A DNA stretch of 5,205 nucleotides from a virus (Duplodnaviria; Heunggongvirae; Uroviricota; Caudoviricetes). The stretch is taken from IMG/VR virus record IMGVR_UViG_2693429662_000020, positions 1 through 5,205 of that record, one strand, 5' to 3'. The translations under genes were made by a program, and so were the position numbers. Below the pieces are notes generated by a model that saw only the letters and a program-made list of their open reading frames with translations, was not told the origin of the DNA and did no database searches. This document shows positions 3,840 through 3,887 of this stretch, in pieces (position 1 is the first letter of the stretch; every line of letters begins with the position of its first letter).

Positions 3840-3864
3840 TGGACCGCCATCGGGGACTTGAACC
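3840..3864 (-). pseudogene. 3' fragment of a second tRNA gene (T-loop to CCA), truncated by the IS186 insertion
   Basis: Minus strand reads GG-TTCAAGT-CCCCG-ATGGCGG-T-CCA: T-loop, 3' T-stem, 3' acceptor strand, discriminator and CCA. It sits 13 nt upstream of the intact tRNA-Arg, a typical spacer in a tRNA cluster. The 5' part is displaced beyond the other end of IS186, outside the window. Confidence 0.5.
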
Positions 3865-3887
3865 CATAAGCGCTAACTTAAGGGTTG
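3865..3887. repeat. IS186 terminal inverted repeat (transposase-distal end)
   Basis: Exact 23/23 reverse-complement match to 5181-5203. Confidence 0.9.

Follow-up and report, generated by a model that had tools for sequence, protein, structure and literature searches.

The target of IS186, a common insertion sequence of E. coli, has been defined as 5'-GGGG(N6/N7)CCCC-3', a motif found at only 54 sites in K-12 and used by the element in both orientations (Lee et al., 2016, PMC5009759). Six-nucleotide cores were present in 41 of 59 recovered sites and the less frequent seven-nucleotide cores in 16 of 59 (Lee et al., 2016, PMC5009759). Hot spots have been reported in fimA and menC and at a GGGG(CCGCAA)CCCC site (Lee et al., 2016, PMC5009759), and the lon promoter is given as another (SaiSree et al., 2001, as cited in PMC3045373). 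K-12 carries IS186A, IS186B and IS186C (labelled by NCBI as 'IS4-like element IS421 family'), and the copy described here has the same InsL transposase, terminal repeats and GGGG-N-CCCC junction as they do. The junction of IS186A has the same geometry, with GGGG-ATCACT-CCCC as the target and GGGATCACTCCC on both sides. Only the location differs from K-12, as the present copy lies in a prophage tRNA gene and at a target with an N7 core. The known hot spots and the site described here, the T-arm of an argN-type gene, have in common that a rare consensus site is used repeatedly and in both orientations. They differ in that the known hot spots lie in a promoter or in protein-coding genes, whereas the argN motif arises from the architecture of a tRNA T-arm.

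The second known system is the ileZ-argN-argO tRNA cluster of Stx2 phages (933W, VT2-Sakai, Stx2a_F723). The cluster of the prophage described here is approximately 96% identical to it, with the same gene order and the same position downstream of Q. Its middle gene is annotated argN in AP012533.1, and it is this gene to which the disrupted one corresponds; the naming of the cluster also leans on Plunkett et al. (1999). The two settings differ in what comes after the tRNA genes: in Stx2 phages these are the stx genes, whereas here the cluster is followed by an STnc100-like sRNA, an iraM-like gene and an esterase gene.

The DNA analysed here, referred to as the window, is 5205 bp long and corresponds, in reverse complement, to the entire draft contig CYDN01000127.1 (GCA_001284585.1). 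Positions 128-3865 are a segment of the late region of a lambdoid prophage, in which the order of genes is Q antiterminator, DNA methylase, ileZ-argN-argO-type tRNAs, SASA esterase, holin, lysozyme, terminase, portal and capsid. The far side of the segment is bounded by an IS1 terminus (1..127), as relatives without the IS match only from position 128; the terminus is exactly 127 nt long, resembling a k-mer overlap at an assembly break. Within the segment lie a DUF1327/ydfR-like gene (291-635, minus strand), a holin gene (within 128-3865), a SASA/nanS-p-type esterase gene (1006-2862, minus strand) and an intact argO-type tRNA-Arg(UCU) gene (3750..3826, minus strand; called by ARAGORN, Rfam tRNA 70.1 bits). 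An iraM-like gene (3123-3458, plus strand) encodes an IraM-like anti-adaptor of 111 aa (NCBIfam NF007393, 162 bits), and its strand, opposite to that of the late genes, makes it look like a moron-type cargo gene. The STnc100-like sRNA (3484-3673, minus strand; Rfam STnc100, 132 bits against a gathering score of 47) lies directly downstream of the argO-type tRNA, where Stx2 phages have their stx genes. Scans of positions 3400-5205 found no sigma-70-like sites, and the terminator-like matches there were unremarkable.

The rest of the window is occupied almost entirely by a complete IS186 (3866..5202, minus strand), which is 1337 bp long when counted from ATAAG to CTTAT and spans 3865-5203 if the classical 23-bp repeats (C...G) are counted. 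Its terminal inverted repeats lie at 3866..3887, the transposase-distal end that adjoins the tRNA 3' remnant, and at 5181..5202, the transposase-proximal end. The first is the exact reverse complement of the second, giving a perfect repeat of 22 bp, or 23 bp with the flanking C/G, that reads (C)ATAAGCGCTAACTTAAGGGTTG. Between them an intact InsL transposase gene of 370 aa (4036..5148, minus strand) runs in the direction of the tRNA and late genes, and its product is 100% identical to K-12 InsL1 (Pfam DDE_Tnp_1, 93.7 bits; NCBIfam IS4 family transposase, 133 bits, above the cut-off). Over a 1355-nt alignment, positions 3851-5205, which include 15 flanking bases, are 99.8% identical to the IS186A region of K-12 with 2 mismatches and 1 gap. 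With an intact transposase and both ends in place, it is plausible that this copy would still be active in transposition.

Next to the transposase-distal end lies what is left of a tRNA-Arg(UCG) gene of the argN type (3840..3865, minus strand). These are the last 26 nt (nt 52-77) of a 77-nt gene, the encoded CCA included, and comprise part of the T-stem, the T-loop, the 3' strand of the T-stem, the 3' acceptor strand, the discriminator U and CCA. Read on the minus strand, 3865..3840 is GGGTTCAAGTCCCCGATGGCGGTCCA. The intact 77-nt tRNA-Arg(TCG) gene is present in IS186-free relatives (ARAGORN, PGAP), at 4381-4457 in L001 and also in L009, L010 and L014, and its 3' end in these (4381-4406 in L001) is identical to the remnant. 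It is flanked there by tRNA-Ile(CAU), which ARAGORN labels Met, and tRNA-Arg(UCU); it scores 59 bits in Rfam against a gathering score of 29, and all four of its stems are canonical. A preliminary description of the window had placed IS186 in the T-arm of a phage tRNA gene, with the IS end abutting the G's of the T-stem. It had reconstructed the T-arm as CGGGG-TTCAAGT-CCCCG and regarded this as a G4-N7-C4 target of the type that IS186 is reported to prefer. The intact genes of the IS186-free relatives bear out this reconstruction letter for letter, and the target agrees with the published GGGG(N6/N7)CCCC definition (Lee et al., 2016, PMC5009759). Relatives that lack both IS elements are up to 99.6% identical to positions 128-3865, and their homology ends exactly at 3865, where the IS186 end follows.

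Since the assembly of the window stops at 5205, the right flank was taken from a sister genome, L008 (GCA_040813315.1), a 5.29-Mb contig found by searching for exact matches to the esterase protein. L008 matches the window over its full 5205 bases with 2 mismatches, the IS1 and IS186 junctions both included. Past the window's end L008 reads ACTTGAACCCCGCG... and so supplies the 5' part of the tRNA that the window lacks, with tRNA-Ile(CAU) after it. Where the window has GGG at 5203-5205, L008 continues ACTTGAACCCCGCGCAACC..., and after GGG it is ACTTGAACCCCGCGCAACCAGCTTCGAAGG..., the 5' 64 nt of tRNA-Arg(UCG); carried further, the sequence beyond the window (ACTTGAACCCCGCGCAACCAGCTTCGAAGGCTGG...) leads from the 5' part of tRNA-Arg(UCG) through tRNA-Ile(CAU) to the methylase and Q. 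The tRNA gene is thus in two pieces, a 5' one of nt 1-64 that lies outside the window and a 3' one of nt 52-77 (3865-3840). As a result of this split no tRNA is detectable any more, and ARAGORN makes no call at 3840-3865 in the window as it stands.

The 13-bp sequence GGGACTTGAACCC is found on both sides of IS186 in L008 and in a single copy at the empty site of IS186-free siblings, which reads GGGGACTTGAACCCC and contains GGGG-ACTTGAA-CCCC, a target of the N7 class. The left copy lies at 3853..3865 in the window, inside this target, and the GGG at 5203..5205 is the start of the right-hand copy, the remainder of which is lost at the contig end. The last two bases of the window had been read in the preliminary description as a possible trace of an 11-13 bp target duplication, with the duplicated target and the 5' half of the tRNA expected further on; L008 contains both. 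Removal of IS186 and one repeat copy in silico restores the exact sequence of L009, in which ARAGORN again calls tRNA-Arg(tcg). How long the duplication is depends on convention. Drawing the IS ends at ATAAG...CTTAT makes it 13 bp, and the classical 23-bp repeats (C...G) leave 11 bp; if IS186 is taken to include the terminal CCC/GGG, only the 7-bp core is duplicated. The 7-bp convention follows the wording of Lee et al. (2016, PMC5009759). It is also the one implied by the 1345-bp IS186 feature of K-12, and consensus target sites cannot discriminate between the three.

In L008, L009, L010 and L014 a full IS1 separates the DUF1327/ydfR-like gene from the phage lysozyme gene. The three siblings L009, L010 and L014 have this IS1 and lack IS186, and they are 100% identical to the window over positions 1-3865. 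The IS1 insertion is therefore the older of the two and the IS186 insertion is recent. The prophage has accordingly lost tRNA-Arg(UCG) only recently, as siblings that bear IS1 and are identical over 1-3865 retain the gene.

These observations are best explained by a simple transposition of IS186 into a lambdoid prophage at the GGGG(N7)CCCC site of the phage tRNA-Arg(UCG) gene in the argN position, a reading to which we assign a probability of about 95%. The nature of the window itself invites the suspicion of an assembly artefact, in which short-read assembly linked a tRNA fragment to the repeated IS186 node and created a junction that no real genome has. The window is an entire 5205-bp draft contig with both ends in repeats; it opens with exactly 127 nt of IS1 and ends 3 nt beyond IS186, as is typical where an assembly graph breaks. 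The same junctions are, however, present in the independent 5.29-Mb contig L008 and in the IMG/VR contig L005, and closed genomes hold analogous complete insertions, which makes an artefact extremely improbable. It is also very unlikely that the window's isolate carries a recombinant IS186, with the 3' part of argN as its left flank and another IS186 site as its right flank owing to an inversion or deletion. Such a copy would be compatible with a window that ends at 5205, as GGG should border the IS at every IS186 site, and the related draft contig L006, in which IS186 has non-matching flanks, shows that copies can be rearranged or misjoined. Yet L008, with 2 differences in 5205, has the simple insertion, and the junction in L006 has an N at a non-consensus site and may itself be an artefact.

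The remaining alternative concerns the gene rather than the junction: it may have decayed before IS186 arrived, in which case the remnant would not derive from a functional tRNA. Degenerate alleles of the middle tRNA without an ARAGORN call do exist (L002-L004, the left-locus type of L006, and E2348/69), and IS186 is also found in degenerate alleles. Against this, the siblings that are identical in the flank carry a 77-nt gene with four canonical stems, the anticodon UCG, CCA and 59 Rfam bits, and prior decay therefore has very little to recommend it. The simple insertion also predicts what the window's isolate should contain past the contig end. Judging from L008, GGGACTTGAACCCCGCG..., the 5' part of argN, would be expected after base 5202, and CTTAT-GGGACTTGAACCCCGCGCAACC... 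at the IS186 end towards ileZ.

In the proposed mechanism, IS186, an IS4 family element with a DDE transposase, integrated in a sequence-specific manner at the GGGG(N7)CCCC of the argN T-arm, and staggered joining left GGGACTTGAACCC on both sides. The chemistry would be cut-and-paste if this transposase behaves as its family suggests. In the gene for tRNA-Arg(UCG), the T-stem contributes the G-rich and C-rich arms of the target and the 7-nt T-loop its core. This target is the sole GGGG(N6/7)CCCC match in 21.9 kb of the sibling prophage region, for which base-shuffled copies gave a mean of 0.73 sites.

The use of this site is recurrent. Of 5426 complete E. coli genomes, 19 have an IS186 at this position in the argN T-arm. 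Both orientations and three alleles are represented, and the junctions always fall at the same phosphodiester positions. The canonical allele is interrupted in the window's orientation in L008 and L005, and in the opposite orientation in CP148275 (L018) and, at one junction, in L006. An allele with GGGG-ACTCGAA-CCCC carries IS186 in the opposite orientation in TUM9803 (L019). A decayed allele with GGGG-ACCCGC-CCCC is occupied in 17 complete E. coli genomes; the element is oriented as in the window in 9 of them and the other way round in 8. The two orientations represent independent insertions, because homologous recombination within the IS leaves each flank joined to the IS end it already had. 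ARAGORN makes no call on the decayed middle-tRNA allele (GGGGACCCGCCCCC; L002 2640-2660 and 3990-4010, L003, L004, L020), which still fits the N6 form of the IS186 motif.

The left junction of the window itself is present in no complete RefSeq E. coli genome. Coverage of it is 80% or higher in only three records, with 94-95% identity, and all of these have the degenerate allele. Exact-pattern scans for either junction recovered L005 and L006 among viral contigs and no match among genome contigs or metagenome contigs. A match in E2348/69 that reaches 23 nt into the IS repeat was rejected as a chance resemblance, produced by CTTAAAGGGTTG in another decayed argN allele, and IS186 is absent at that allele.

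In L006 (IMGVR_UViG_2690316200_000011), IS186 at 2455-3900 is oriented opposite to the window's copy. On its right it is flanked by the 5' part of argN, and on its left by sequence located 38 nt upstream of another ileZ, with an N at that junction. This contig was considered as evidence of a second target upstream of ileZ and rejected, given the N at the junction, uninterrupted homologues without GGGG..CCCC and a flank that is unreliable. L006 is probably either a collapsed-repeat misjoin or a product of recombination between two IS186 copies.

As GGGG(N7)CCCC coincides with some T-arm layouts, tRNA genes such as argN alleles and leuV are predictable and recurrent targets of IS186. The three K-12 tRNA-Leu(CAG) genes leuQ, leuP and leuV (L021) have the same T-arm as argN, GGGGTTCAAGTCCCC, and host tRNAs of this kind were accordingly predicted to be targets. 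The prediction was borne out at leuV in strain 300444 (L022 2075-3411, NZ_CM128586.1), the one complete genome of the 5426 with IS186 inside this gene. The insertion there is flanked by the same 13-bp repeat as in the window, GGGTTCAAGTCCC.

A further reading regards G4:C4 T-arms as ready-made N7 targets, with argN of lambdoid prophages and host leuQPV as recurrent landing pads, and supposes that repeated insertion between Q and the genes for lysis and morphogenesis might be favoured by selection for crippling or taming the prophage late operon, not by neutral specificity; we consider this an unlikely proposition. Neither IS186 nor its target rule is new, and the event is an ordinary one; what is added, in a small way, is that a tRNA T-arm with a G4:C4 stem serves repeatedly as a natural IS186 target. 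Literature searches found no paper linking IS186 to tRNA T-arms, which is absence of evidence only. The insertion accounts for the tRNA fragment beside the IS and for the break in the draft contig, and the finding matters little beyond annotation. T-arm targeting could nevertheless be of use where prophages decay through IS insertion or where contigs break close to tRNA clusters.

The insertion places 1.35 kb between the Q antiterminator and ileZ on one side and argO, the STnc100-like sRNA, the esterase and the lysis genes on the other, and the argO-type tRNA-Arg(UCU) has been moved away from the upstream part of the tRNA cluster by this distance. The function of tRNA-Arg(UCG) would be lost. 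If the late promoter lies in the upstream part, on the side of Q and ileZ, as is assumed here, polarity on late transcription would be possible, and Q-modified polymerase may read through. Loss of tRNA-Arg(UCG), an accessory phage tRNA, would presumably cost the host little. The prophage already had IS1 in its lysis region.

The argN gene of the Stx2a phage F723 (L023 1887-1963), the sole Stx2a allele examined, has GGGG-TTCGAGT-CCTC in its T-arm, with a G-U pair, which is an imperfect IS186 motif. Phage F723 may therefore be less open to IS186 insertion immediately upstream of stx2.
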